Source: Octopus vulgaris
Taxonomy: Eukaryota
Assembly (NCBI GenBank): GCA_951406725.2
Contig: OX597827.1
Span: 29,264,001-29,328,000, forward strand
DNA: 64,000 bases
Reading direction: 5' to 3'
Positions 1 through 64,000 of this stretch are shown here, in pieces. The notes under the pieces were generated by a model, which had not been told where the DNA came from, made no database searches, and saw nothing but the letters and a program-made list of their open reading frames with translations. The translations under genes were made by a program, and so were the position numbers. Positions within the stretch are counted from its first letter, which is position 1, and each line of letters starts with the position of its first letter.

Positions 1-300
1 CTAGCTAATCTATTTTTAGTTTTCTGTACGATTCTGTTCGGGGTGTTCTGTAGGTAAAACAGACAATCGTCACGATATAGGCCACCACCGATGTCCGGGA
101 ATTGGTCGGATAATTCATAGAGAATATAGATTCCGACCAAATCGGCAATCTGCGCGCTATCTGAACTACCCATAGGTATATCGAACTCGTTGGGAGTATC
201 CTTACGAACCCATAACTTATCTTCAAACTGTATAAAGGATTTTCTGGCGACTAGAATTATATCAATTTCTTCTCTTGTGAGGCCTGCCTTATTATGTGCA
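1..300 (-). mobile_element. Penelope-like element reverse transcriptase fragment (runs off window start)
   Basis: Manual minus-strand translation: EEIDIILVARKSFIQFEDKLWVRKDTPNEFDIPMGSSDSAQIADLVGIYILYEL...FPDIGGGLYRDDCLF. This contains PLE-type FDxxMGS and YRDD motifs. Confidence 0.85.
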
Positions 301-319
301 TGCCACATAATATATATAT

Positions 320-1990
320 ACCGGAGTAAACACATAAATGTGAAACAAGGTGAGAAAAAGAGTAATTCAAATACCAGACGTAGAGTAATATGCTTCATTT
401 AAAGGCAGCAGAAATTTAACAAAAGCTGTTACTCGGAGTTTCACGTTCTCGTTCGTCGGATAGTTTAGAACGGAGATGACAATTCTATCAAGACTAGTAT
501 AAACGTTACACCTTTAAAAATGAATTTGTTTGATTGGTCCTTTCAAATAAGGGTCATATGCGAGCGATAAGCAAAAATAAACAAAACAAATAAATGAGTT
601 CAATATAAAATTATAAAAATCGCGGAAAAACCTTAAATCGAAGATTTGATTAAATACATATTGTCATTAATTATGTAGAAAATATAATTCGATTAATACA
701 ATTAATACATAAAAATTTAAATTAAAATATATTAAAATATTTCACAACAGTACATACTCATACTAAAATACACAGATAGATGTCCGCAGACCACATACAT
801 ATACAGACATATAAATGCAAAACGAAAATATACACACAAATACATGTACACACATGCATACGCAATCTTGCTCACATGCAAAAATCACTCGGTGTATACA
901 TATAGACTATAAGCAAAATGCAGGGAAGTGGAAGAGACGATCTTGTAAGCAACAGAAAGCTAAAGACGTGAGTAAGGGAGGGGGAGGGGCGTAAAGTTAC
1001 AGAGAGAGAGAAAAACGAAAGAAAGGAAGAAAGAAAAAAGAAAAAGAAAAAAGAAAAAGTCTGACTATACGTAACGGATGATCATAAGATGAAATTACGT
1101 ATACATGTGTATATAAGCATGTAAGCCGTAAATACATATATACGAACACATATAAATATATAGAGACAAGTATGCAAACACACAAGTCCAACTGAATACA
1201 TACACATATATTCATGTATGTATGTGCATAAGTACAAACATACACTCTCACTTACACATATACATAGACGCATGCTTACAAATACATATGCATGCCAATA
1301 CAAATATTCACAGAAAAAAGTCTAGGGTCTGCGATTATTATTTTTTTTAATTGCTGAGTGCATAATAATAAAATGTTTAGATAAAAGACATCCAAAATAT
1401 AACACCCTATATTGGATTATCTATAAATTAAATTACCAAAGTGAGTTTATACAATATAAAATAGTAAAATAAACTAAGTCGAAGGTTTTTTCTTAAGAAA
1501 TATATCGAAATATAATCAAAAGATATACAAAACTTTGCGTTGCGGAATAGAACCTGCATAATGTGAAACAAATCCAACAGTGTGATCAAAAGCTAGTCCA
1601 AGAATCAAAAGATCAAAAAGACAAAATATACGCTATCCATATGGGATATTGATGTTCGACATTTTAAATTTGGTTGCGTGCCTGCATGAGTTCAAAAGTT
1701 TGCTTCTTTGATTCAAAGAATTAATGTCTTGGAATAATATGAAATATTTCTCTAATAAACAGAGATCGCATTTAAAATTCTTCCTATGTGCCCCGTGCCT
1801 GTATGGTGCCGCTCTATCTAGAATATTCCATGACACGTTGAAAGGTCGGGTTTCTTTTTCTTTTAGTTCCCAGACATATTTCGCCAGGCTGGTCTTCGTC
1901 TTATTTTCTGGGTATCGAAAGTAATTGTTGTGCGAATAAAATCGGGTTTTAAAAGAATTTTCAGAAGCCCCTGTATAAATCTTATATGAT
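320..1990 (-). mobile_element. Penelope-like element 3' part: GIY-YIG endonuclease C-terminus (~1990-1633), long 3' UTR, pseudo-LTR with hammerhead, ending at (TA)n
   Basis: Minus translation YTGASENSFKTRFYSHNNYFRYPENKTKTSLAKYVWELKEK...CDLCLLEKYFI...LNQRSKLLNSCRH. Hammerhead-like motif at 425-463. Confidence 0.8.
425..463 (-). ncRNA. Minimal type I hammerhead ribozyme motif (U4C core variant)
   Basis: Minus strand CTAT-CCGACGA-ACG agaa CGT-GAAACTCCGAGTA-ACAG: core, stem II, near-palindromic stem III, GUA site, stem I with one mismatch. Confidence 0.55.
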
Positions 1991-1999
1991 GTAAAGTGA

Positions 2000-3174
2000 T
2001 GTAAAGTTATTACCCCCGAAAACGGTTATGGTAAATATGAAAAAGAAGACTATTACATAGAAGGTGCACTCAGTGGAGTGTAGGAGGGTGGAGCAGATGA
2101 AGATGGAAAAAGTAGAAAAAGCTCTCAAGGGGCTTTCGAAGGAAGTAAGATATATAGCAAAAGGAAGCGGATATGGGACGGTGTTTGTCCAGTTTAGGAC
2201 AGAAGAGGAGGCAAAGAGGCTGGCAAGTACAACTGTAAAAACTGAGGAACTAGTACTTCTACCCTCCTATCTTGGAAGAAAGAATTCTAAGGTGAGGGTA
2301 GAAGGAATTCCACCTGACATAAAAGTGGCTTGGGTTGCGGCAGCCGTCCTCGTTGGAAGTGAGGAGGTGACTGTCCTCCAAGCCACAGAGACAGAGGAAG
2401 GAAGCTACAAAGGAAAAATACTGGAAATGATCATACAAGCGGAGGCGAAGGAGCTGGAAAATTTGGCGGAAACGGTGACGATGGGAGAAATAGTATTGAG
2501 AGTATGGGTAGAAGGCAGAACCCCGCGGTGCTTTAAATGTGGCCAAAAAGGCCATATTAGAGCACACTGCCCCCTACAGAAGAAAAAGATAGAGACGAAG
2601 GAGAAAAAAGAGGATGAAAACAAAGACGGACGAAAGGAGGAAGAATGGATAGTAGCAGAGTGTAGAAGGAATAAGAGGAAGAAAAGAAAGAACACTGAGT
2701 GTGATATGGTACCCCAGTCCAACTCCATCCCACCCAAGACAATTCAGACCCACCCGCCCCATACAGACACCAGACCCAACCACTCCCTTTCCCCACAAGA
2801 AAAAAGAAAAAGAAAAAACAGCAGACACCACAGAATTTAGAAAACCCCTCACCCGGTGAAAAAGGTTGCGAAAGAATGTTGTCATTAAGCGAGAGTGAGA
2901 GTGGAAACAGAAGGACTAGACCAGAGATTAGAGAAGAATTCAGACTCAAAGGCAGCAAGTGGTGTTGCTCAGAGTGGGGTGAGTAGCACACTCTTCATAT
3001 TTTCATTTTCAGATATCATGCATGTTATCATAAACTTAATTTATTTTCTCACTTTCATTTTCATGTCACTCACAGTATCATTTTATTTTTACATATTCTT
3101 AATTCTTATATGTCTCAACATGTTTTTGTAGTGTCCCCTCTGTGTAATGCCTTTATGGCAAAATAATTGAAATA
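2000..3174 (+). mobile_element. ORF1-only non-LTR retroposon, element A (5' truncated; HAL1-like, Tx1/L1-type ORF1)
   Basis: Zinc-knuckle ORF followed by a T-rich 3' UTR, TGCC-tttat-GGCA hairpin (3148-3160) and GAAATAA. No endonuclease or RT. Abuts SINE-A-like target sequence. Confidence 0.75.
2028..2840 (+). pseudogene. Tx1/L1-like ORF1 protein: two RRM-like segments, CCHC zinc knuckle, basic tail
   Basis: CFKCGQKGHIRAHC; VRYIAKGSGYGTVFVQF; KVRVEGIPP. ATG at 2028 is in frame but followed by a TAG at 2058-2060. Track ORF is 2064..2840. Confidence 0.75.
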
Positions 3175-3190
3175 AAGTAGCTCGCTAACC

Positions 3191-5184
3191 TCTGACGTGT
3201 TCAGACGTGTTTTTTGGCTGCTCCAGTTGTCACGTGTTTCAGCGTGAAATGTTGAACTTTTGAGACTCGACTACAGGTATGTGTTTAATGTTTTTTGGGG
3301 GGCTTAGGGAAGTTTATTGCTTTGCATTTAATATTTTTTAGCAAGTAATAGACTACACTTTGCTCCGGACATTTTCCTGCCTGTGGTCGAGTATAAAGAC
3401 TCACTTTGCAGTGAGAATTGTGTTTTTTGAGGAGGCGTAGCCCCTCCTCAAAAATTATTTGCTTTCGAGGAGATTACCAACGACAAACAAGGACTGTTTT
3501 CATTGGGATTTGCCAGGAGGCACCAAAGACTGTTGAACGTTTGGCCAGGAGTACGTTTTCGGCCAAAATAATTAATTCCTTTGCTGAATTTGAACTCTTC
3601 TTCAAGCTATCATTATTTTTAATGAACTTTTTTTGAACTTCTATTTTCATTTCTTCCCTTCTGTTGTGTTTTCCATTCTCCTTTTTGTGACCTATTTTAT
3701 TTTTTGTTTGAACTGTTTTTGAACTTTACGTTATGGCAAAGGAACTTATTGTGTGGGACCTAGCACCTCCCAAAAAATATTTAAAAGAGCTGGAAAGAAA
3801 GACCGTGGTGTTGAGGACATACTCGAAGTCGCTCGACACCATAGCAGTCTTCCCAAAGGCTACTATTTTAAACGAGCTGGCAGACTACATGCCAGCCGTT
3901 AAATATATCGCTCGGGGAGTTAAATACGCAACGGTTTGGTTGCTATTTGACTCCCCCGAAGCAGCTTGCGAATTTGCAAGCAAGCCTATCGAGGGCGAAG
4001 AAATATTGTTTCTCCCCAATTATATGGGAGAAAAACTGTTGAGAGCTTGGATCTGCGGATTACCACCAGGCATTGAGCCAGAGTGGATAGAGGACTCTAT
4101 CCGCCGGGGCTTGGATGGTAGCAGTTCCAAGCTACTGAACGTAAAAGTGCAGCCTGTGGCTAACTGGGAGGGGTCAAAAGCTGTTTTGACCCTATGGACC
4201 CAGTCAGCCAAAAGTCTGGTTTTACCGGACTTTTTGAGGATGGCCGGGTACAGGTATCCGGTGATGTTTGAGGGACGCCCCCCACCCAAGTGTCACCTGT
4301 GCCTGGAGACCGGCCATATTAAGAAGAACTGCCCCAAGGACAAGAGTAGGATCCTGGAGCAGTTGATGTTGGAGCCTCTCCCAGCCCCCCCCCCCCCCCC
4401 CAATGGAGGGAGAGAAACAAAGTGAGGAAGCGGTGACTTCCTCAACAAAAAGAAAAGTGGGGAGCAATGGCGACCCACCAAAAGAACCGGAAGCTGCGGG
4501 AGAAAAAGAGGACCCGGTGTGCACAACACCTAAACGTAAAAAGGTAAAAAGAAAAAGAAAAAGAGAAACGGGACGCCGCCGGCGGATTGTAACACGCAGA
4601 CGGCGTCTCCCATGTCTCCTCCGGCAGTTGTGTGGCCGGAGAAACAATCTGTGATATTCTTCTACAAAGAAGGAATATTAGAGAATGAAATAGGTAAAAT
4701 GAGGAGGAGAGACCAATGGGAGGGACTTCGGTCCTGCACGGAGGATGCCGAGTGGCCTTCGCAGCTGGCTGCGGAGGTCCTACTGGATAAAGATCTTTGC
4801 AGGATCACGAATTCTTTCCCGGGGGACTCCTTTCGAGTTTTGCCTGTATGGGGCCTGACGAAGAACGATTGCCTCAATGAGGCAAGAGCGCTCATCGGCC
4901 GGGTAACATGAACCTGTTTTTGTATTATATTGAGAAGGAGGTTTATTGCCTCTTGTAAAATTTTTGAATTTGTAATTTGTAAAATTTGGAATTGTTGTGA
5001 AACTTTGAAACTTTTGTAAAATTTTTTGGAAAAAAAAGAACAATGTATTAGAGAAGCGAAAGTCGGCGGGCGCTTTCGTCTTCTCCCATCATCATCTTCG
5101 TCCATCACCATCATTCATTAATGTCTTTTGTCCAGCCCGCAGCTACTCTGTGTACTGCCCTAGTGGCAGATTATATATGAAATA
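3191..5184 (+). mobile_element. ORF1-only non-LTR retroposon, element B (apparently full length, ~2.0 kb)
   Basis: About 540-nt 5' UTR, ORF1, 3' UTR, TGCC-ctagt-GGCA hairpin (5156-5168), GAAATAA. Flanked by AAGTAGCTCGCTA at 3175-3187 and 5185-5197. Confidence 0.8.
3733..4911 (+). pseudogene. ORF1 protein (~390 aa): two RRM-like segments, CCHC knuckle, basic linker, conserved C-terminal domain; frameshifted at the poly-C run (~4385-4401) and the A-rich run (~4545-4565)
   Basis: CHLCLETGHIKKNC. Track ORFs 3733..4425, 4403..4654 and 4612..4911 are colinear with copy C, where the knuckle and the MEGE segment are in frame. Confidence 0.75.
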
Positions 5185-5418
5185 AAGTAGCTCGCTATTT
5201 ATTCATTTATTTATATATATTATACAAAATATTTCAAATCAACCCGGAGTTTCTACCTTTACAAACTGGGTATTACATCCTTATTACTTGTGTGATTTTT
5301 TTGCTGCCCTGGTAACTGTTTTTGTTTACTTTCTTCTTCCCAATATATCATTCCCTGGAAATCTGAATCGCTATTACATTTATCCAACACTCATCGAATT
5401 TCATATGTTCACGCTCAT

Positions 5419-11004: not shown

Positions 11005-14000
11005 TCTAGTTTCAGCTTATGAGCAGTAGTCATGCTGAGGCACCACCATTTGGTGTAGCTACATGATTTTACTTCACTAATTTCTTTTAGAAATTGACAT
11101 TTGTTTTCTTTATTACCCACTAGGGGCAACAATTAGAAATTGACAATTTGTGCATGAAAGACTTTGATGCGGCTGCCTTTATCTGCACTTCCTACTGTGA
11201 AGTTGGTTCATCTGGGACACTTGACAGTAAGAGGTCCAGTTTCGTTTTAAAATTTCTTACGTTCATCCCATGCAGGTCTCTCAAATCCTTCGCGACGATA
11301 TTGAAAAGCTGTGATCCCCTAATGCCCAGGCTGTTGCAGTATCTTGTCCTCTATCTTAATGGCAAATTTGGTGTCCTTAGCACAATGCAGTGGCACCCTG
11401 TTCTAGTATTAGTGTAACTCTCGATACCAAAGTTTGGGACAAGTCCCTCCAGGATCTTACAGATGTATATTATGGCATATCTTTCTCGCCTACGCTCTAA
11501 GAAATAGAGTCTTAATCTCGTGGGTTTTCCCCAGTAACTTATAAGCTACATAGAGGCTATCTTCTTGTAGCGACGTTGGATTGCCTCATGTTCTGCAATT
11601 AATTTGACACTGATTTGTGACAATAGCTGGGAGCAATAGTCAATGTGGCTTAGGACAAGTGTCCTCCAGAGGACCATCAGAGTTTCCCGATCCCTTGTTC
11701 TAAAAGTTCTAAGAATCCATCCAGTCAGCCGCTTGCATTTCATTTCCAGCTTAGCAACACGCACATAGAAGGATGCATCATTACTCATGTAAATGCCCAG
11801 GTTTCGCACTGACTGTATCTCCAGGTCCAGTGTATTTAATTGGTAATACATTTAATTTTGCATGCTGATAGCCAAAGGCTTGAACCTTTTCAGCATTAAA
11901 CTACATGCTATTCTTATCAGGTCACTTGCATATTTCATACAAGTCAGATTGCAGGTGTATAGTGTCTTCAAGGTTATGTATCACCTGTGAAACTTTTGGA
12001 ACATCTGCGTAATTTGTGATCGTGGGGCTCTATGAGGCTGAAGGGCCACGTCTGAGAAGGCCATTATGAACAGTAGTAGTCCCAAAATAGTGCCTTGCGG
12101 ATCACCGCTTACTATTTGCGTGTCATTGGAGGTAGCGCATGACTGTTATCCTTCAGAAAGTCATGCATCTATTCTCTTAATTTCTCGACTATGCCGAGAT
12201 CATGCAGTTTGTGATATATCATTCCATGATCTGACTTTATCGAAAGCCTTTGCAAAGTCGGGATATATCACTTTCACATTTGATTGGTTGAGCAGCTGTT
12301 TCAACACCCAGTCATAATGTTGTAAGAGTTGAGCCAGGCAGCTTCTTCCTGGTCGGAAACCATGTTGGATGTTAGTCATTTTACTCAAGGAAGGTGATCA
12401 ATTTTCTTCTGATATTCATTCCATGACTTTGCTGATGTGTGAGGTCAGAGAGATAGGTCTGTAGTTTTTGGCCTCTGCTTTGCTACCTCCTTAATGAATA
12501 GGGAATATCTTACCCTCCTCCAGCTTGCTTGGAAATTTTGCAGTTGCAAGTAGGCTTTGAAAGAGGAACTCAGTGGTTTTGCTAGGACTCGCTTACATGC
12601 TTTTAGAAGGATTGTTGGGAATCCATCAGGGCCAGTATCTGAGCTCGGGTTCATTTCATCTAGATCCCTTATTACATCGTCTTTTTTATATTGATATAAT
12701 CAATCATCATTGCCTCTGTTTTTATATCTGCAGCAGTAAAAATGTCAGCGGGATTGCTGACCTGCAAGTGTCTTAGTTGTGGAGTGAAAACACCTTTGAA
12801 TTGTTCATTTAGTGTTTTACTTATCCTCATTGGGTTTCTTGTGAGTGAACCATATTTTTTGAGGAGTGGACCTATCCTGCGCTGCACTGAGGTTGTTTCT
12901 TTGGTAAAGTTGTAGAAGGTTCTGGGGTTAGATTTTATATTGTCTATAGTCCAGGCTTTTTTCTACTCTTTCTTTTTCATGAGAGAGTTGCAGATTATTT
13001 TTCAATCTCCAGCAGTTGTATTTTCGGGCTGGACTTTTCACTGCTTTCAGTTTGTTTGTTTAAGCGATTTTAATATTTTGTACGCTGTCTCATAAGAATT
13101 TTCCTCATCCTAGGGATTTTGTTCTTGTGTACAGTAGCCTTTCTCCCTGGGACACATTTGTAGCTTGCATTACAGACATGAATTATTGAAGTTTCATGTC
13201 GATGTCCGGTGAGGAGAAACATTTAGACCAGTTTTGTTTGAGGATCTCTTTCTCTATTTGTTTCCAGTTTGCTTTATGGAAGTGCAATCTGGAAAGATTT
13301 TGAGAATTTCTTGTGCGCTGCATGTCCATGGTTTCCTTTGGCCCGTCCATGATCAGCTCTATCATGTTGTGATCAGAGAGTAGCGTCGGTGTCACTTTCA
13401 CATTATGGATGAGATCCATATTATTTGTGAAGCAGAGATCCAGTATACTATCTGCCCTGGTTGGTTGGAGTACTATTTGTTCTATGTACAAAGTGATGAG
13501 GTTCAGGAGGGACTTCACTTGTCCTTGTACGCATCACGCTATTCATGTGAGAGAAAGGCCCTCAGGCCATCCGATATTGGGCAGGTGAAGTCTCCCATAA
13601 CAAGTACACTTATGTGTTGTTCTAATGTGACTAGAACTTCTATTTTTGTAAGGCAGTCTTCAAACTTGTCTGCATGATTTGGAGCATGTGGAGGGGCGAT
13701 ATGTAGTACATATAATTACACCGAGTTGTCTTTATTAGTGTGTCACATACTGAATTTGAGTGTGACAAAAGGGCCTGGGGTTTGAGGTCATCGCTGATAT
13801 ACACGGCAATTCCATCATGACTACTTTCTTTTCTGTCAGTCTGTAATACAACATACTGTGGTATGTGTATTTCTGCATTTATTATATCTGGTTTCAGGTG
13901 TGTTTCCGTAAGAGCTATGCATAAGGCGTGATTGCAAGCAACAAGGTCTCTCAGGAAAGGAATATTTGTCCTGTTACTAAGTGTTAACAATTCTCTGATG

Positions 14001-14047
14001 CTCAGTAAGAGCACCGATGTGATGTCTGTGATGTTACCATGCTCTCC
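11005..14047 (-). mobile_element. Decayed CR1-like LINE ORF2 (APE + RT) with 3' tail
   Basis: IALTETHL, ILDLCFTNN, QHGFRPGRSCLAQLL, PDFAKAFDKV. Many frameshifts. 3' tail GGTGCCTCAGCATG...CTGAAACTAGA. Confidence 0.9.
11087..11145 (-). mobile_element. Tiny 5'-truncated SINE-B tail insertion with 13-bp TSD inside the LINE
   Basis: TTAGAAATTGACA at 11087-11099 and 11133-11145 flank TTTCTTTATTACCCACTAGGGGC, the reverse complement of the SINE-B long tail. Confidence 0.7.
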
Positions 14048-14086
14048 ATACATGTATATGTATGTATATATATATACATGTATATG

Positions 14087-14201
<115 letters not shown>

Positions 14202-14951
14202 ATATGCACATATGTATGCAACAGTCTTATGTACTTCTCTCGCTTTCAGTCTCTGATATTGAAACTTCAGGGATATTCGGTGAATGGCCTACAAGATGTT
14301 CTCTTGAATTGAATTGCACTATATTGTTTATGTTTACTCTCTTCTTTATATGAATATAAACAATTTTTTTCTTCTATACACGAATTTCTTCCAGTGAAAT
14401 AGCCGATGAAACCGATTAAATACAACAACATGACTTGAATCGTTCCCTACAAATATTAAACTGAACAACAATCGCATTCACAAATGACATGACGACAACC
14501 ATGGATACAGCCTAAAGAAACATTTGAAAAACAGTCTAAAAGTTTTATAGTGCTGTGCACCATTGGGCAAGGTCGCCTCAGTTCAGATGACACCATTCCA
14601 AAATCTTGAAAAAAACACAATGAGTACGATGATCATAATGTTGCGAATGGTTTCTCTCGGTGTAACTTATTCAATTTAAATAAACATAATACTCTACTTT
14701 AGTTCATGGATTAAGTCCTTCTTTATATTGATGTAATCAATATCTGCAGCAAACTAACAATTAAATGCACTCGCAAATACATGCAAGTACACAGTTAAAC
14801 ACACAAGCACACAAACACACAAACAGACATTACATAAACATAAGGCGTGCATACATATTCATAAATACATATGTACATACTTCTAACCATAATATATATA
14901 GAGAGCGAGAGAGAGAGAGAGATACATAGAGACAGACAGACAGAGATGCAA

Positions 14952-15393: not shown

Positions 15394-15872
15394 TTTATTT
15401 CTTTGTTGCCCATAAGGGGCTAAATATAAAGGGAACAAACAAGGACAGACAAAGGGATGAAGTCGATTACATCGACCCCAGTGCGTAACTGGTACTTATT
15501 TAAATCGAGCCCGAAAGGATGAAAGGCAAAGTCGAACTCGGTAGAATTTGAACTCAGAACGTAACGGCAGACAAAATACCGCTACGCATTTCGCCCGGCG
15601 TGCAAACGATTCTGCCAGCTCGCCACCCTAATAATTTTCTATATAATAGTGAATATACTTTTCTACTCTAAGCACAAGGGCCGAAATTTTGGGAGAGAGG
15701 GCCAGTCGATTAGATCGACCCCATTACGTAACTGGTACTTAATTCATCGATCCCTGAAAGGCTGAAAGGCAAAGTCGACCTCGGTGGAACTTGAACTCAG
15801 AACGTAACGATGGACGAAATACCGCTAAGCATTATGCCCGGTGTGCTAACGTTTCTGCCAGCTCGCCGCCTT
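15394..15872 (-). mobile_element. Two SINE-B copies (long-tail 15394-15628; short-tail 15660-15872)
   Basis: Reverse complement of the SINE-B consensus. Confidence 0.9.
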
Positions 15873-17428: not shown

Positions 17429-17840
17429 TTCTTTCTTTCTTTCTTTTACTTGTTTCAGTCATTTTGACTGCGGCCATGCTGGAGCACCGCCTTTTAGTCG
17501 AGCAACTCGACCCCGGGACTCATTCTTTTTGTAAGCCCAGTACTTATTCTATCGGTCTCTTTTTGCCGAACCGCTAAGTGACGGGGACGTAAACACACCA
17601 GCATCGGTTGTCAAGCAATGCTAGGGGAACAAACACAGACACACAAACATACACACATACATATATATACATATATACGACAGGCTTCTTTCAGTTTCCG
17701 TCTACCAAATCCACTCACAAGGCATTGGTCGGCCCGGGGCTATAGCAGAAGACACTTGCCCAAGATGCCACGCAGTGGGACAGAACCCGGAACCATGTGG
17801 TTGGTTAGCAAGCTACTTACCACACAGCCACCCCTGCGCC
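17429..17840 (-). mobile_element. SINE-A, full length, well preserved
   Basis: Head GGCGCAGGGGTGGCTGTGTGGTAAGTAGCTTGCTAACC; tail GGCGGTGCTCCAGCATGGCCGCAGTCAAAATGACTGAAACAAG. Confidence 0.9.
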
Positions 17841-18502: not shown

Positions 18503-21500
18503 TTCTAGTTTCAGCTCAGAGCTGCGGCCATGCTGATGCACCGCCGTTTTGTGCTACACATTTATTGCGACGAACCTCGTCTAATATGTGGCACTTGGTG
18601 AATAATGGAGTTTGATACAGCTACTCTCATTTGCACCTCTTGCCGTGAGGTAGGTTCATCTGGGACTCTTGACAGGAAGATGTCCAGCTTTGATTTAAAA
18701 ACTGCTACATCTACTTTGTGCAGGTTCCTCAGACTCTTTGGGAGAATATTAAAAAGCTGTGGGCCCTTGAAACCCAGGCTGTTGCAGAAGCTGGTCCTGA
18801 AGAGTGATGGCATTGCTGGGATCTTTGGCACTATGCAGTGCCGTCCCGTTCTAGCATTGGTGTAGTTTACAATGCCAAAATTTGGCACAATTCCTTCCAG
18901 GATCTTCCAGACATATATTACTGCATACCTCTCCCGTCTTCTCTCCAGGGAGTAGAGTCTTAGCTGTTTCAACCTTTCCCAGTAGCTGAGCTGTTGCAAA
19001 GAGAGATCTTCTTTGTGAATCTTCTCTGGATTGCTTCAAGGTCCGCTGTTAATTTTACACTGGTGGGTGACCATAGATGTGAGCAGTAATCCAGGCGACT
19101 GAGGAGAATGTCCGCCAGAGGACCATCATGGTTTCCTTATCTCTGGTTCTGAATGTTCTTAGGATCCACCCAGCCAGTCGTTTGAACTTTGTCGCCATCC
19201 TGGTAATGTGCACTTGGAAAGAGGTATCATCACTCATGTCGATACCCAGGTCCCTCACAGATTTATGCTCTGGGATTGAAATTCCATGTGGACCGGTGTA
19301 TCCTGTAAGTTTAATATTCAGTTTTGGATGCTGGTAGCGCAGGGCCTGGAATTTTTCAGCATTAAACTGCATATTATTATCCTCAGCCCATCTGTAGATT
19401 GAGTCCAACTCCTGCTGCAGGTGTGCAACATCGCTGGGGTTCTGTATTTTCTGCGAGACTTTCGTATCGTCTGCTTAGCTGGCCAGAGTGGCTATCCGGG
19501 CATTTGAGGGCATATCTGAGAGGGCCACTATAAAAAGCAGTGGTCCCAAGACAGTGCCCTGTGGAACACCGCTCACTATTTGTGTGTTCATAGAGGTGGC
19601 TCCATTAACCACTACTACCTGACTCCTATCTTTCAGGATGTCATGCAACCACACTCCAAGTTTTCCAGCTATGCCGAGGTCACGTAGTTTGTGGCATATC
19701 ATACCATGATCCACCTTGTCAAAAGCTTTTGCAAAATCAAGGTAGATTACGTCCACATTTGTTTTGTTGAGTAACTGCCTCAACACCCAGTCATAATGCT
19801 GTAAGAGCTGGGTCAGGCAGCTCCTACCTGGTAGAAAATCATGCTGGGTATTACTCAGCAAGTTATTTTCCTCAAGGAATGCGATTAGTTTCTTTCTGAC
19901 TATCCGTTCCATGACTTTGCTGATGTGTGAAGTCAGAGAGATAGGCCTATAGTTTTTGGCATCTGCTCTACTTCCCCCTCTATGTATTGGGCATATTATT
20001 CCCTCCTTCAGCTTGCTTGGCAGTTTGCCATTCGCAAGAAAGCTCTGAAAGAGAATCTTGAGGGGTTTTACAGGGCATGCTTACACGCTTTGAGGATGAT
20101 GGCTGGGAAACCGTCTAGACCAGCAGCTGAGTTTGTGTCCACTTCATCTATGGCTAGTAGGACATCTTTTTCGCTAATGTCAATACATTCTATTCTAACC
20201 GCCTCGCTGGTTATAGGTGAGGCGGCAAAGAGGTCCACTGGTTCGTTCACTTGTCTGTGTTCCAACGGGGTGGTAAAGACACTTTTGAACTGGTCATTCA
20301 GCATCTCACTGATCATAGTTGGGCTGTCTGTGAGGAAGCCATCCTTTTGGAGGAGGGGTCCTATCTTGTAGTGCACTGAGACTGTTTCTTTCGCGTAATG
20401 AAAGAAGGCCTTTGGATTTGATTTAATGTGTTTTATAACCCAGGCTTCTTTGTCTGCTTTCTCCTTCACATAGGATTGTTGCAGCCTTTTTTAGATCTCT
20501 ATCAGTGTTGTTTTTAGGCGGAACGTTTCGCTACTTTTGGGATGTTGGTTGAGACGATTTGCAACCTTCGTCCGTCGTCTCATGAGGATCTTCCTGTCTC
20601 TTGGAATCTTGCTCCTATTTGTTTTGGCCTTGTGCTCTGGGACATATTTCTAGCATACGGCTTGTACAGAAGACATGAAACATTCTAGTTTCATGTCAAT
20701 GTCTGGTGTGGAGAGACATTCCGGCCAGTCCTCTCTGAGGATTTCTTTTTGGATCGATTTCCAATCTGCTTTGTGGAAGTTCAGATTAGAGAGATTTCGG
20801 GTGCTTCCTTTAAGCTGTATGTCTCTGGTTACTTTCGGCCCAAACATAGACAGCTCTATTATGTTGTGATCCGAAACTGATGTCGGTGTCACTTTCACAT
20901 CATGAATGATGTCCACATTGTTCGTGAAGCAGAGATCCAGAATGTTATTCGCCCTAGTCGGCTTGAGTACAACTTGCTCCATGAATAAGGCATTGGTGAG
21001 GTTGAGCAGGGACTCCACCTGTACTTGCTTTCAATGATTCATTCCTGAGAGTATGTGACCTTCGGGCCATTTGACGTTGGGGAAGTTGAAATCACCCATA
21101 AGAAATATGGTCACGTGGTGTTCCAGATTCATGAGGATTTCTTTAATTCTTGTGAGGCAATCTTCAAACTTGCCTATGTGATTTGGGGCATCCGGTGGGC
21201 AATATGTATTGCATATGACTATATTATGTTGTCTTATGTATACAATTAAGGTGTCACATACCGAATTTGAGTATGTCATCAAGACCTGGGGTGTGAGGTC
21301 ATCTCGGATGTATACAGCAACTCCACCATAGCTCCGTTCCCTTCTGTCTGTTCGCAGTATGGCATAGTTTGGTATGTGCACTTCTGCGTCCTCTATATCA
21401 AGGTTGAGGTGAGTTTCCACAAGTGCTATGCATAGGGCTTGATTGCATGCAGTAAGATCTCTCAGGAAAGAAATTTCGTTTCTATTTTGATGCAACAGAG

Positions 21501-22180
21501 CCCCAATATTTAGTAAAAGTATTGGGGTGACGGCTGTGCAGGCGTTAGGGAGGCCATCCCGTGTCTGTTTACTGTGGTGGTCTTGCATAGTGGTGAGCAG
21601 GGTTCCTTCTCTGTGCTTGGTGTAGCCAGGTTAGCTGCCGGACAATTCTTTCCGCCATGCATAAAAAAGACTCTTGCTCAGCTGCTGCGTTGCGCAGAAC
21701 ATCTGAGGAGCGCACTTCGTTTTTGAAAGTTTTCCTGGGAGACATTTCTTGTGTTCCCTCGGTAAAGTTTTTCTCTTTGAGTCCCCTGAAGTTCTGGCGG
21801 GGTGTCGGGTGGGCGAACCGGCAGTTTTTGCCGTCCTCACCATGCCAACATTTGCCTCGCATGTAGAACTTACAGGCTCTTCGGTGCCTTCCAGATTTCT
21901 TATTTCCTGGGTGGCATTGGATCCTCCATGGGGTTCTCTGCTGTTTGAGTGGTGGGTTGGGGTTTCAGCTTTGGTTGTTTTGCCTTTTCCCTCCTTATTT
22001 TTGTTTTCGGTCCTTCCTTTTTACTTCTGTTTTTCTAATTTTTCTAATTTTTCATTTCTTCGTAGGACCACTAGTACATAGGGGGCTTCCGGTTTCTGCT
22101 CCCTTGGCTCCCCCTATCCTTCACTACTTGGTCGTTCACCGGGGTAGGTGATCCATTTTCCTGAGGAACCCCTGGATCAC
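18503..22180 (-). mobile_element. CR1-like LINE, near full length but inactivated: CCCH-finger ORF1 remnant plus APE-RT ORF2
   Basis: CKFYMRGKCWHGEDGKNCRFAH; ALVETHL, GDFNFP, YLDFAKAFDKVDH, SGVPQGTVLGPLLF, YADD mutated to *ADD, LYSLERRRERY. 3' tail followed by an A run. Confidence 0.92.
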
Positions 22181-22420
22181 AGATATATATATATATTATA
22201 TGCATATGCATACATATATATATACATGCATTCATACATATAAATATATATATATATTTATATATATGCATATAAATACATATATATAGATAGATAGAGA
22301 GGTAAGTAGGTAGGTAGGTAGGTAGGTAGATAGATACATACATACATACATATATGCGTATATATATGTGCGTGTGTGAATATGTATAAATATATATATA
22401 TATGTGTGTATATATGTATG

Positions 22421-32074: not shown

Positions 32075-32800
32075 TTTGGCACAAGGCCAGCAAGTTATGG
32101 GGAGGCGTTAAGTCGATCACATCGACCCCACTGAACAATTGGAACTTATTTTATCGACTCCAATGCTCTTTTCTACTCTAGGCACAAGGCCCGAAATTTT
32201 GGGGGAGGGGATCAGCCAATTAGATCGACCCCAGTACGCAACTGGTACATAATTTATTGACCTCGAAAAGATGAAAGGCAAAGTCGACCTCGGCGGAATT
32301 TGAACTCAGAACGTAACGGCTGACGAAATACCTATTTCTATTTCTTTACTACCCACAAGGGTCTAAACACAGAGGGGACAAACAAGGACAGACAAACGGA
32401 TTAAGTCGATTACATCGACCCCAGTGCTTAACTGGTACTTAATTTATCGACCCTGAAAGGATGAAAGGCAAAGTCGACCTCGGCGGAATTTGAACTCAGA
32501 ACGTAACGGCTGACGAAATACTGCTAAGCATTTCGCCCGGCGTGCTAACGATTCTACCAGCTCGCCGCCTTCTTACATCGACCCCAATGCCCATCTGGAA
32601 CTTAACTTACCGACCCTAATGCCCGTCTGGAACTTATTTTATCGACCCCACTGCCAATCTGGAGCTTATTTTATCGATCCCGGAACGATGAAAGGTAAAA
32701 TCAGCTTTGGCAGAATTTAAACACAGACTGTAAAGCGGACGAAATGCCCGTTAAGCGTTATCGCCGGCGTTTTAACGATTCTGTTAGCTCGCCGACTTAC
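32075..32800 (-). mobile_element. Cluster of nested or dimeric SINE-B copies with an internal ~33-bp tandem
   Basis: Long-tail copy 32335-32570 is joined to the internal GGTATTTCGTC site of another copy. Repeated ATCGACCCC...CTGGAACTTA units. Confidence 0.85.
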
Positions 32801-43778: not shown

Positions 43779-43800
43779 GATGATGAAGATGATGATGATT
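43490..43800. repeat. Compound (CAT)n/(AAT)n/(GAT)n microsatellite
   Basis: Direct inspection. Confidence 0.95.
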
Positions 43801-46249: not shown

Positions 46250-47595
46250 TTTTGGAGGGAATATTTACGAATTCAATTGTCTTCCCGAAAGCCACAATTT
46301 TGAAAGAGCTGGCAGAATACATGCCAGCCATTAAATTTATTTCACGGGGAGTCAAATATGCAACGGTCTGGTTGCTATTTGACTCCCTCCAAGAGGCTTG
46401 CGAATCTGCAAAACGGCTCCTGGAGGGCAAAGAAATTATGGTTCTTCCCAATTATTGTGGGAAGAACTTAATGAGCCCGAGTGGATAGAGGATTCTATCC
46501 GCCGGGGTCTGGGTGGTAACAGTACCAAGCTGCTCAACGTGAAAATTTTGCCTGCGGCTGATTGGGAGGGGTCAAAAGCTATTTTGACCCCAAGTATCAC
46601 CTGTGCCTGGAGACCGGCCACATCAAGAAAAACTTCCCCAAGGACCAAAATAGGATCCTGGAGCAGTTAATAGAGGAATCACTCCCTGGTCCCTCAATGG
46701 AGGGAGAGACGGAGGAGGATGACGAGGAGGTTTCCACCTCCTCGAAAAAATGAAAGCGAAAGGTGGGCAACAGTGGCTGCCCACCGAAGAACCCGAGGGC
46801 TGTGGGAGAAAAGGAGGACCTGCTGGACACAGCAAAGGAACACCATCCTCCCGCGGCCCAAGGGAAAAAGAAAAGAAAAAAGAAAAACGGGACATTGCCG
46901 GCGGTTTGAAACACGCTGCCGGCATGTCCCGATTCTCCTTCGGTGGGTTTGCCGCTGGAGGAAGCATTTGTGGTCCTCTTCCACAAGGGAGGAACTTTGC
47001 AGAATGAAATTTAAAAAATTGAAAGGAAGGGCCGGTGGGAGGGGCTTCTGTCCTGCACGGAGGACCCTGAGTGGCCTTCGCAGGTGGCTGCGGAGGTCTT
47101 ATGGGATAACGATCTGTGCAGGATAATGAATACCTTCCCAGCGGACTCCTTAAGATATATGGCCAAGTGGTCCGGCTTGGAACCGAATAGATGCTTCGAT
47201 GAAGCGAGGAGCCTGGTCGGACAGAAAACTTGAAGTATTGGACGTTTGGACTCAAAAAGAGTCTACAAAATGTAAAATAAATGTGTGAGGATTATTGCCT
47301 CGCGTGTGTGATTTTTTTTTTTTCAATATTGAACTATGTACGAGGTTTATAGCCTCATTGTGCCTCAAAAAGAAAAAATAAGAACTCTGAACTATGTAAG
47401 AGGTTTATCGCCTCGTTGTGTTTTTTATAAAATAAAAAAAGAACAATGTTTTAGAGAAGCGAAAGTCGGCGGGCGCTTTTCGTCTTCTCCCATCCTTATC
47501 ATCCTTGCATCATTATCATTCATCCCATTAATGTCTGTGTCCAGCCCGCAAACTTCTCCCTGTGCGCTGCCCTTGCGGCAAATTAAATGAAATAA
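46250..47595 (+). mobile_element. ORF1-only retroposon, element C (family B copy; 5' truncated, internally deleted)
   Basis: VFPKATILKELAEYMPAIKFISRGVKYATVWLLFDS, HLCLETGHIKKN. Same 3' UTR as B, with TGCC-cttgc-GGCA (47568-47580) and GAAATAA. Confidence 0.88.
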
Positions 47596-47748
47596 GGAAG
47601 ATTGTTTCCCATTCAGGTTACCGGGTTCAGTCCCACAGCGTGGCATCTTCGGAAAATGTCTTCTACTATAGCCTTGGACCAACCGAAGCCTTGTGAATGG
47701 ATTCGGCAGACGGAAACTGAAAGAAGCCTGTCGTGTATGTGTGTGTGT

Positions 47749-51583: not shown

Positions 51584-51998
<415 letters not shown>

Positions 51999-59685: not shown

Positions 59686-60964
59686 CGAGGGACGTTCAAT
59701 AAGTAATGCCTCGGACCCACTTGCAGTTGTTTGATCTAGCATGTGCAATCATTTATATCTCTATAGAGTAAGTGACAAATTACAGCTCTGAATTAATTGT
59801 GGTTTCTGATTTACAGGTGTTTGAACTGAGTCAAGTGTGAAATGGAGCCTGTTGAGTGTCGAGCAGTGATCCGGTTTTTGTATTTGAAAGGACGCACACT
59901 ACGGGAGACTTTTGATGAAATGAAAGTAACTTATGGTGATGATGCCCCATCATATGACCTTGTAAAACACTGGCATCGTGAATTCAAACATGGTCGGAAC
60001 TCTGTGGAAACAGCTCCCAGATCTGGTCGCCCCTTCTGCCATTGATGAGGCATCTGTCCGTCAAGTTGAGGCTGCCATTTTGGAAGATCGACGCATAATT
60101 ATTCGCCAAATAACCCATGAGGTCAAGATTAGTACCGGGTCTGTGGAAACTATCATTCATGACCATTTGCATATGCAAAAGGTGTCTGCCAGATGGATTC
60201 CCAGGTTGCTCACGCCTTTCCAGAAGCAAGAACGCGTCGAGTGCTCGAGGGTGAATTTGGAGATGTGCCAAGAAGATGAGTCAAAATTTTTCAAAAGACT
60301 GATTACACAGGATGAAACCTGGGTCCATCACGATGATCCAAAGACCAAATCCCAGTTAATGCAGTGGAAGCACCGTGACTCACCCCCTCCAAAGAAGGCA
60401 AGGGTGCAGCCCTCCGCTGGCAAGGTCATGCTCACAGTCTTCTGGGACCAGGACGGAGTAGTGATGACATATTTCCTGGCAAAGGGTACCACAATTACAG
60501 GAGCCTATTATGCTTCACTTTTGAGGAAATTAAGAGAAGTTATCAAAATCAAGAGGCGGGGCAAGATCAGCAAAGGCATCCTCCTCCTGCAGGACAACGC
60601 TCCGGTCCACAACTCGCTTGTCGCCAGATCAGAAGCACAGGCGTATGGCTATGAACTCCTCCCCATCCCCCCTACTTTCCTGACCTTGCACCCTCTGATT
60701 TTCACCTCTTCCCAATCATGAAGTTGTTTTTGAAAGGAAAGCGTTTCCCAGATGATGCAGCCTTGATTTCTGAAGTCACGTTGAGGTTGGAGGACCAAGC
60801 TGGGTTCTTCTACAAAAACGGTCTCCATAGCCGCATCAAACGATGGGAGAAATGCGTAACTCTGGGTGGTTCCTATGTAGAAAAAGCCTAATAACTGTGC
60901 CAAGTTTCGTTGCTCTACTGCTATGGGAAGTGGGTCAGGGGCATTACTTATTGAACGCCCCTCG
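59686..60964 (+). mobile_element. Mariner (Tc1/mariner) transposon, full length
   Basis: TIRs CGAGGG(A/G)CGTTCAATAAGTAATGCC; TA target duplication at 59684-85 and 60965-66; 1279 bp. Confidence 0.95.
59842..60891 (+). pseudogene. Mariner transposase with two frameshifts (~60035, ~60665)
   Basis: RSGRP, WIPRLL, TQDETW, LQDNAPVH, and PDLAPSDFHLF in a shifted frame. Confidence 0.92.
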
Positions 60965-61624
60965 TACCTTAAGTAACTCTTATCGTAGGGTTTGTTTGTT
61001 TTCAAGCTCCGTTCCGGTTAATTTCTATTTCCAAATCTATGTATTTGAAACAAAGATATTTACAAATGTTTACTTCAATTTGTCCTTGGTGAATTTTATT
61101 TCACGTGTATTTATATAGTTACTGGAGAAAAATGCATTTGATCATATATTATTTAGGAGTGAGGGATAGAAATCTAGAAATATTGATGGTAGCAGCAGCT
61201 ATTATTGTTGTTTTTTCTCCACTCCAAGCCTAATCCATCAGAAGTTTGATCACAAGCTTTCCAATCATGAGAGAATTTAAGACTAGACTGTCCAATATGT
61301 CCCTTAGAGTGCCACTTGGAAGAAAATTTGACTGTTACTTTGCTGTGGTAAGCAACCAAGTAGGGGCACCCTCGTTGGCTAGCTAAGGTACTAGAAGAGA
61401 ACATAGACAAAGAGATTATCCAGCTGTTGTAAGACGGACCTTAAGTGAATCAGACGAATTCAACTCTTGACATATGAGCAATGATCCCATAAACAGACAC
61501 ACACACACACTCAGCACACACAGACACACTTACACACATTATTTAGCAACATTGCTTAAAGAACAGGGCAGTTTCATGACTTTGCTCATAACGGAGTTTA
61601 TGACGTTTCTAATATCACCTTTGA

Positions 61625-62459: not shown

Positions 62460-62807
62460 TGGGGCTAATTTAGCTGCTTCTATATTGATTGAAAAAACTG
62501 ATGAACAACCTTATTCGATTTTCCATTCTTATTGGATTCTCATCAGAGGTGTCTACCACAATTTTTCCCATTCCAGAGAAACAAGCATGTGTTTATATGA
62601 CCACCAATTACAGTAGACACAGAAAAGTAGATCTATCAATTTAATTACTAACACTTTATATTTAATTACTGACACTTTTTATTAACTATCAAGAGCCTGT
62701 CGAAGGGAATCTCAGTTCACACAGTATCATGATAAGAATACTGCATGTTACATACATCACATACATCAGTGTATATAGATAGATAAATATATATATATAT
62801 ATATATT

Positions 62808-64000
62808 GTCTACACCATCAGGGATAACCTAGACATGCTGAACCACCTCCCGAAGACAGTAAAGGACGGAACTCTACTGGTATCTTTCGATGTGGTGAAT
62901 CTATACACTAATATCCCACACGACTATGGTATAGAAGCAATCACATTTTGGCTAGAAATATACCCAGAAGATATCTCAGGACGAATTAACCCCAATTTTA
63001 TAATTGAAGCACTTAAATTCGTCCTGTTGAACAATCATTTCTTGTTCGATACTACTTACTATCAACAGAATGCGGAATTGCAATGGGGACCAGAGCTGCT
63101 CCAGTGATTGCAAACCTCGTAATTGGTTACCACGAACTTAAGTTATACCAATCATCACTAGAAAAATATGGCGCCTCTCTTAATTGCTACTTAAAGGAGA
63201 ACTGGAAGAGATATTTAGATGATTGCTTCATACTTTGGCTAGATAGCATGGGTCAACTCCTTGATTTCAAAAGAATGCTCAACAACATACTCAGCAATAT
63301 ACAATTCACTATGGAACACAACAGTAAGCACTCCCTTTTCTAGACATCTTAATTATAATAGTTAACAACCACATGGAAACAGACATCTTTTATAAACCCA
63401 CAGATACCTATTAACTAAACAATACCTATTATTTAACTCCTGCCACCCCAAACACATAAAAATCAACATACCCTTTAACCAAGCGAAAAGAATCTGCACC
63501 ATAGTTTCCGATACATACACTCGAGAACATAGATTCTTGAACTTAGATCTACACTAACTAAAAGACATAACCCAATCTCATTAGTAGATGAAGGCATCAA
63601 AAGAGCTAAGGAAATAGATATACAAAGGTTAAAGAAAACTAGCCGAAATACTAAACAAGACTTAAAAATACTCCCGTACATCTCCACACATAACCCCAGA
63701 AACAACGAAGCCTTCAACATCATCACCTTAAACCTTCCCATCCTCACAGCAGACAAAACAATGAACGAAATTTTAAGCTCATATAAAATTATAAAAAAGC
63801 AAAAAGCAACCGAAGTTACTGAAAAAAATATTAACCAGCGCTAGACTTTACCCACTAACAACTGAGCCAAAAGTGACAAAATGGGGACGTTCTAACTGTG
63901 GAACATGCCCACACCTTCTGGAAGGTTCAGAATTCTAATTCAAACAAGGAGAAATATTTAAGATCAAATCAAATTTCACCTGCGCCTTAGCAAATGTAAT
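62808..64000 (+). mobile_element. Penelope-like element RT, thumb and linker before GIY-YIG (decayed; runs off window end)
   Basis: LVSFDVVNLYTNIP, AMGTRAAPVIANL, WKRYLDDCF, FLDI, FYKPTD, FNSCHPKH, NCGTCPH, FTCA..NV; several frameshifts. Confidence 0.9.

Follow-up and report, generated by a model that had tools for sequence, protein, structure and literature searches.

A probable octopod family of non-autonomous, ORF1-only non-LTR retroposons with a putative SINE-associated insertion site

The window, a 64,000-nucleotide stretch of the Octopus vulgaris contig OX597827.1, contains three related elements, A, B, and C (Table 1). Element B spans positions 3191-5186 of the forward strand and is composed of a 5' UTR, one ORF (3733-4911), and a 275-nt 3' UTR; its end lies at 5186 and not at 5184, where the original prediction had placed it. 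The 275 nt from the ORF stop (4911) to the terminal AATAAA (5181-5186) are too short for an endonuclease or a reverse transcriptase (RT), and the open reading frame list contains no frame of at least 100 amino acids starting past 4911 on the + strand of B. The element of about 2 kb thus has no room for either enzyme, as had been proposed. The frame opened by the ATG at 3733, the position of which is supported by the relatives P0004 and P0036, halts at 4425, and coding homology with C extends to a common stop at 4911. B as assembled is full-length yet not intact because its coding region contains two compensating frameshifts, one at a poly-C tract (~4385-4401) and one at a 13-nt gap relative to C near 4537. 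Segment 3340-3480 of the 5' UTR, one of six segments folded, is structured (fold z -3.16), and it is possible that this segment is a shared promoter piece. No credible match to a ribozyme or an Rfam RNA family was found in B. A TATA-like motif is located within 3340-3480, and the summed depth of the bin 3373-3493 exceeds that of the neighbouring bins.

Table 1 Coordinates of the elements and flanking features in the window
Feature	Position	Strand	Evidence and remarks
Left-flank fragment, cut at the start of A	1633-1987	-	ORF 1633-2025; no Pfam family
Element A of the second lineage, with 5' truncation within ORF1	1988-3176	+	alignment with P0008 begins at 1995 (76%)
A tail: CCCCTCTGTGT, TGCC-5-GGCA hairpin (3148-3160), GAAATAAA	3117-3176	+	tail alignments
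SINE-like 14-nt piece separating A from B; putative target duplication, left copy	3177-3190	+	13/14 to SINE
B 5' UTR	3191-3732	+	T 0.40 by composition; start deduced from where the SINE-like piece stops
B ORF1 core: RRM1, RRM2, and one CCHC knuckle	3733-4338	+	structure model; tandem-RRM matches
B linker, low-complexity, basic, with both frameshifts	4339-4623	+	alignment to C; P0004 in the +1 frame 4409-4513
B conserved C-terminal domain, then stop	4624-4911	+	58% identity between B and C
B 3' UTR	4912-5186	+	82% likeness to C over block 5031-5185; hairpin 5155-5169; AATAAA 5181-5186; without poly(A)
SINE-like piece, right copy, 11 nt, remainder of SINE absent	5187-5197	+	repeat and SINE match
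Other second-SINE-family copies with A-like tail	32333-32590; ~15400-15620	both -	tail sequences
Element C, decayed, 5'-truncated, B lineage	46270-47596	+	72-82% to B in three blocks
SINE 3' part after C, same start position as the flank of A	47597-47734	+	alignment
Second-SINE-family copy with A-like tail	51613-51845	-	nhmmer; tail alignment

The 5' junction of element A carries a 10-nt direct repeat, and the reading frame of A spans 2061-2840. Contigs of the public runs X2, X6, and X16 diverge from the window sequence at 1987, the left edge of A. The fragment on the other side of this edge is presumably the GIY-YIG end of a Penelope element. Element C has two internal gaps, 34 and 94 nt long, each between short repeats. 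The junction of ORF1 and 3' UTR had been described as the same in B and C; the stops are indeed aligned, but C is about 80 nt longer ahead of the conserved 3' block. A GAGG..CCTC unit is present in three copies in the 3' UTR of C (window positions 47290-47420) and in one copy in B.

Other repeats are found throughout the window. A frameshifted but nearly complete LINE, which we take to be CR1-like and which has frames resembling endonuclease and RT, occupies 18562-22240 (-), and fragments related to it lie at ~11250-11850 and ~13180-14245. The right flank of B (5198-5400) is the interior of a high-copy repeat, other copies of which reach to the left of 5201; its likeness to the repeat at 380-520 is not significant, nor is its assignment as a Penelope terminus (348/2000 shuffles). 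The frames at 59966-61017 (-) presumably belong to a mariner-type transposase, and we assume that 3-398 (-) and 62787-63844 (+) are further Penelope-like RT fragments.

The core of B ORF1 is formed by two RNA recognition motifs, RRM1 (approximately residues 11-100) and RRM2 (approximately residues 97-183), and a CCHC knuckle (residues 186-202). The structure prediction proposed as a check gives a tandem-RRM core: the AlphaFold2 model, built from a 34-row alignment, has a pLDDT of 87 and a pTM of 0.71. The top Foldseek rows are tandem-RRM proteins (E 3e-5); their TM over the whole chain is low owing to the orientation of the domains. Each half of the core aligns to an RRM in VIA-align, with La at Z 9.4 (rmsd 2.7, 83 residues) and p65 at Z 7.8-8.0. 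The Pfam zf-CCHC match is under the cut-off in B (E 0.003) and over it in A; a PDB sequence search returned knuckle and low-complexity matches only. The modelled RRM-RRM-CCHC layout corresponds to a type I ORF1, as defined in the accessible part of PMC5203782, and ORF1p with this fold would be expected to bind RNA. The CCHC knuckle matches retroviral nucleocapsids, as that of a gag-only LTR or DIRS-type element might, but the folded core is a tandem RRM and not a capsid, and a BLASTN search of 1-5400 against the window detected the 52-nt match between the tails of A and B but no long terminal repeat. A gag-only origin is therefore scarcely plausible.

ORF1 is under purifying selection between B and C, as the comparison of substitution rates suggested for this pair shows. 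The dN/dS is 0.27 (CI 0.16-0.46, 132 codons), and that of the C-terminal domain is 0.32 (CI 0.16-0.58, 89 codons), versus 0.86-1.20 in four wrong-frame controls (0.93 and 1.20 for the C-terminal domain). The linker has a dN/dS of 0.58 with a wide interval. Since dN/dS is low in the C-terminal domain relative to the wrong-frame controls, this domain is functional. No fold is assignable to it (best Atlas score 0.79, model pLDDT 56, best Z 5.2). Homology of the C-terminal domain of B to the C-terminal regions of eight other relatives was rejected (score -2.3, with 608/1000 shuffles equal).

The A and B proteins had been thought to resemble each other at motif level only. The quoted motifs are present in both; instead of isolated motifs, however, there is a continuous alignment with 29% identity over 146 amino acids (E 3e-19). 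The reported difference in base composition is borne out, as the ORF of A is A-rich (A 0.378, C 0.183) compared to that of B (A 0.288, C 0.229). A search with B returned one homologue among 2911 candidates, from O. sinensis at 67%, and a search with A returned four among 806. An exhaustive homologue search produced 54 hits, several of them by knuckles or repeats alone (30 proteins were Pfam-scanned). The nine named relatives, from 20 of the 54 looked up, are all octopod: Octopus sinensis, O. vulgaris, O. bimaculoides, and Argonauta hians. A tree of 31 selected rows, some of which kept sequence beyond the ORF1 core, sets A apart from B and leaves most deep forks without resolution. Single linkage groups the 31 proteins into 18, 22, and 25 clusters at 40, 45, and 50% identity, that is, some 20 ORF1 protein lineages, among which there may be ORF1s of autonomous elements. 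A C-terminal LK..FP.DVG-like motif, which belongs to no Pfam family, was seen by eye in P0007, P0010, P0021, P0037, P0039, P0041, and P0058.

Some of the relatives are annotated as octopus genes, and P0015, named EPM2A-interacting 1-like, is a member of this ORF1 family. The nearest named Atlas cluster to ORF1 is ZCCHC3-like (0.91); a paper on ZCCHC3 does not mention Tx1. Such annotations and features are what processed pseudogenes of a spliced, ZCCHC3-like host RNA-binding gene would produce, the outcome named in advance as contrary to a retroposon family. The copies have no poly(A), however, and thousands of diverged contigs exist. The 31 proteins fall into 18-25 lineages at 40-50% identity; this diversity and the tail of 60 nt that is common to lineages only 29% alike and also found on a SINE make a pseudogene origin highly improbable.

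Contigs aligned to the window were obtained from four of 24 public runs, representing three organisms, and number 3636, 4130, 2609, and 303. One of the four, X16, may be an RNA run. About two thirds of the public-run contigs are less than 95% alike to the window, and nearly all bins have depth, the figures for which are not taken as copy numbers. Among the 32 pieces listed of 10757, two bridge the stop of B by the 31-letter rule (X1 4759-4967 and X16 4748-4953), one covers A from ORF to tail (X16 2726-3123), and none spans the B ORF to AATAAA; the X6 piece 4682-4935 crosses the stop of B but misses the rule. No loose end leaves at 4911 or 5186 among the 24 listed of 1929. These pieces do not count ORF2-bearing copies, but support the absence of ORF2 as a family trait. 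The trait appears in B, in C, and in independent contigs bridging the ORF end into the UTR, and in both lineages, in agreement with the original prediction.

Alternatively, A, B, and C could be deletion derivatives of autonomous L1-Tx1 elements, with ORF2 present in most copies and selection acting in the parents. Many L1-Tx1 and L1 families are present in octopus, the contig evidence is partial, and distant relatives lie on contigs of 5720 and 6159 bp, which are big enough for ORF2. Nevertheless, B and C have a dS of 0.52-0.85 and yet aligned stops followed by related short UTRs, and the second lineage has the same layout, also in an independent run (X16 2726-3123). Several relatives are on contigs of 1.7-2.2 kb, which is a weak argument as contigs break in repeats. 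We regard derivation by deletion as quite unlikely. No fused ORF1-ORF2 form was found among 6655 candidates of 1092-3115 amino acids in a weak search. The B/C tail motif has no match in metagenome contigs. Searches for the DNA context of the relatives in metagenomes (alignment A5, 80 stretches matched) and of P0064 in viral contigs and prokaryote genomes (6 and 101 stretches matched, respectively) gave no confirmed case, and neither these searches nor that for fused forms returned the sequence of a partner element.

The 3' tails of A, B, and C have in common the motifs CTGTG and GAAATAA and a TGCC-5-GGCA hairpin, the loop of which differs among them; in A and B, the likeness extends over the last ~60 nt. 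All three end in AATAA(A/G) without an A run. Each pair of tails aligns above 2000/2000 shuffles. The proposal that the ORF1s belong to two divergent lineages and yet have one tail in common stands, and the lineages may reflect either an old radiation or repeated origins. The fold energies of the tails are weak (z -0.15, -1.66, and -0.62). An RNA-guide model, in which the tail would pair with the sequence downstream of it, was rejected, as shuffles were as good in 27/500 (B), 197/500 (C), and 469/500 (A) cases. A tail profile (nhmmer) also brings out a second SINE family by its 3' ends; two of its copies have E-values of 0.097 and 0.27, and a related tail has 0.017. The tail of this SINE and that of A have in common an exact run of 13 nt, the hairpin, and GAAATA (score 38, 0/2000 shuffles); against B and C, 2/2000 and 8/2000 shuffles are as good. 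These shuffle figures flatter the match because the SINEs were chosen from the window by the same tail profile. One of the three second-SINE copies with a related tail, that at 32.3 kb, is directly followed by the interior of a SINE from its own family; the other two are not. Hairpin tails of a related, shorter form terminate at 43798 (-) and 32067 (-). We found no autonomous element with this tail; the CR1-like element, the only LINE of the window whose end was compared, ends differently.

The right end of A and that of B are followed by the same sequence. An exact 18-nt repeat occurs at 3170-3187 and 5180-5197 (two matches; shuffles have a mean of 0.12, and 2/100 reach two). In 13 of 14 positions, the 14 nt after A are identical to the part of the SINE copy at 17816 (-) that immediately follows GGTAA; this copy is the sole other match of the 14-mer in the window at up to two mismatches, and 33 of 20,000 random window 14-mers match it equally well. 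C passes into a different variant of the SINE at the same alignment column as the flank of A and runs on in it for ~135 nt. We take the SINE to be tRNA-derived. There was neither a tRNA call nor an Rfam tRNA match for it. tRNA-derived octopus SINEs are cited in the accessible text of PMC4824008.

The statement that B runs from target duplication to target duplication is thus correct as to the 18-nt repeat, whereas its reading as a duplication is unproven: the 11-nt repeat flanks B on both sides, yet also sits behind the tail of A, and neither SINE half is present left of A or right of B. The repeated sequence appears to be a piece of an octopus SINE. The coincidence of all these ends with a single position of a widespread octopus SINE hints at SINE targeting. 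Both independent junctions in the window (2/2) fall on this position, few for the criterion of more than 20% of flanks given in the available part of PMC4494074, and the odds for a SINE-site preference drawn from them appear to us about even. In target-specific Utopia elements, the 5' target half is sometimes lost, copies may be in tandem, or only a short 3' target fragment is present, according to the available part of PMC4640811. Since Utopia elements show such states, the absence of SINE halves around A and B is not fatal to the insertion reading.

It is also conceivable that the 11-14 nt are a target fragment carried at the 3' end of the RNA, acquired by read-through at a source locus or by a template switch to SINE RNA, that A and B moved as one 5'-truncated transcript, and that the junction of C arose by template switch or deletion between similar sequences. 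The absence of SINE halves around the pair, the 18 identical nt across the end in both A and B, and the two gaps between short repeats in C fit such a course. However, C, which belongs to the B lineage, does not have the 11-mer of A and B and has another SINE variant for ~135 nt, and a source locus beside this very SINE position would still need explaining. We consider a carried fragment unlikely, although it deserves weight.

We propose, with a probability of roughly 0.7, that B is a full-length, frameshifted copy of an octopod non-autonomous, ORF1-only non-LTR retroposon, that A and C represent two lineages and are truncated at their 5' ends, and that the family moves by the cycle described below. 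Target-primed reverse transcription leaves copies that are truncated to varying degrees on the 5' side and have exact 3' ends. The family is dispersed and multicopy, A and C are truncated at the 5' end, and the three 3' ends are aligned, as in the ORF1-present class of non-LTR elements. The 5' UTR would drive a transcript of ~2 kb ending at AATAAA, and ORF1p, with its two RRMs and zinc knuckle, would coat its own RNA in cis, as its fold suggests; we propose that ORF1 stays under selection because of this coating. The 3' hairpin tail may recruit endonuclease and RT in trans from an autonomous LINE, for which an L1-Tx1 element is the favoured candidate, somewhat beyond an even bet. The borrowed endonuclease might prefer the SINE site GGTAA|G(T/A)AG, prime reverse transcription there, and duplicate 11-14 nt, a step that we rate as balanced between yes and no. 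As the insertion site would be regenerated behind each element, a second element could land there, giving the head-to-tail A-B pair.

In O. vulgaris, there are 80 L1-Tx1 families, 13 of them recently active, with 421 insertions and 2.29 Mb, according to the available part of PMC13282606, and Tx1 families target other transposons (PMC4494074, available part). A broader picture, which we offer only tentatively, is that of an old Tx1-derived radiation of ORF1-only retroposons in octopods that inserts at one position in the SINE head, forms head-to-tail arrays, and has a recognition tail common to the second SINE family, such that one borrowed Tx1 enzyme would serve both a protein-coding parasite and a SINE, with the other SINE as a safe landing site. 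The new element in our reading is that the putative target duplication appears to be a SINE piece at a fixed head position, which C hits too.

A high-copy, multi-lineage octopus family of this kind would provide a natural test of the worth of a cis-encoded ORF1p, and some "uncharacterized" octopus gene models are explained as transposon ORF1s. If the SINE-site preference is true, the target sequence of an octopus Tx1 endonuclease would be defined, and the likely driver of one octopus SINE family would be named. The gain is moderate, as the basic kind of element is already known from mammals and flies. We found no description of this family in the papers searched; an existing entry in a repeat library (Repbase, Dfam, or the one deposited at Zenodo with PMC13282606) is possible.

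HAL1 elements have a 3' poly(A) tail. The octopus family resembles them in being non-autonomous, in encoding ORF1p without endonuclease and RT, and in keeping ORF1 under purifying selection. It differs in its type I RRM-RRM-CCHC ORF1, as opposed to the type II coiled-coil/RRM/CTD protein of mammalian L1, and in having, instead of poly(A), a structured tail common to a SINE and an apparent fixed insertion site. The label "HAL1-like" is thus apt for the ORF1-only way of life, but the family is not a member of HAL1. HAL1 arose several times, with ORF1 coding kept by selection and ORF2p needed in trans, as described in the accessible parts of PMC5753468 and PMC3627910.

HeT-A forms telomeric arrays and has a long 3' UTR. 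The A-B pair recalls its head-to-tail arrays; however, compared to HeT-A and Ag-Sponge, the octopus element has one knuckle and a 275-nt 3' UTR and is interstitial. The window copies, which lie among interspersed repeats, have neither a telomere link nor a long 3' UTR. The family works like HAL1 and HeT-A in our reading; an L1-Tx1 element is its probable partner, and a preference for the SINE site is plausible. ORF1-only LINE derivatives are known from three clades, with HAL1 (L1), HeT-A (Jockey), and Ag-Sponge (CR1) named and no Tx1-derived case given in the accessible text of PMC5786205; the octopus family is a probable Tx1-derived addition.

Members of the Tx1 clade, such as Tx1 in Tx1D, Tx1-Mar in Mariner-N4, and Keno in U2, resemble the octopus family in their RRM/CCHC ORF1 (PMC5203782, accessible part), and several Tx1 families prefer sites in other transposons; they differ in being autonomous, and no SINE target is among those described in the available part of PMC4494074. 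As the octopus element has no RT, its clade is not assignable, and the link to Tx1 is one of architecture alone: a type I ORF1 with RRM and CCHC motifs is consistent with Tx1, though not exclusive to it. SINEU of crocodilians, as far as its accessible description goes, is likewise a non-autonomous retroposon with a transposon target in common with its presumed Tx1 partner, Tx1-Mar, but is non-coding and has an snRNA head.
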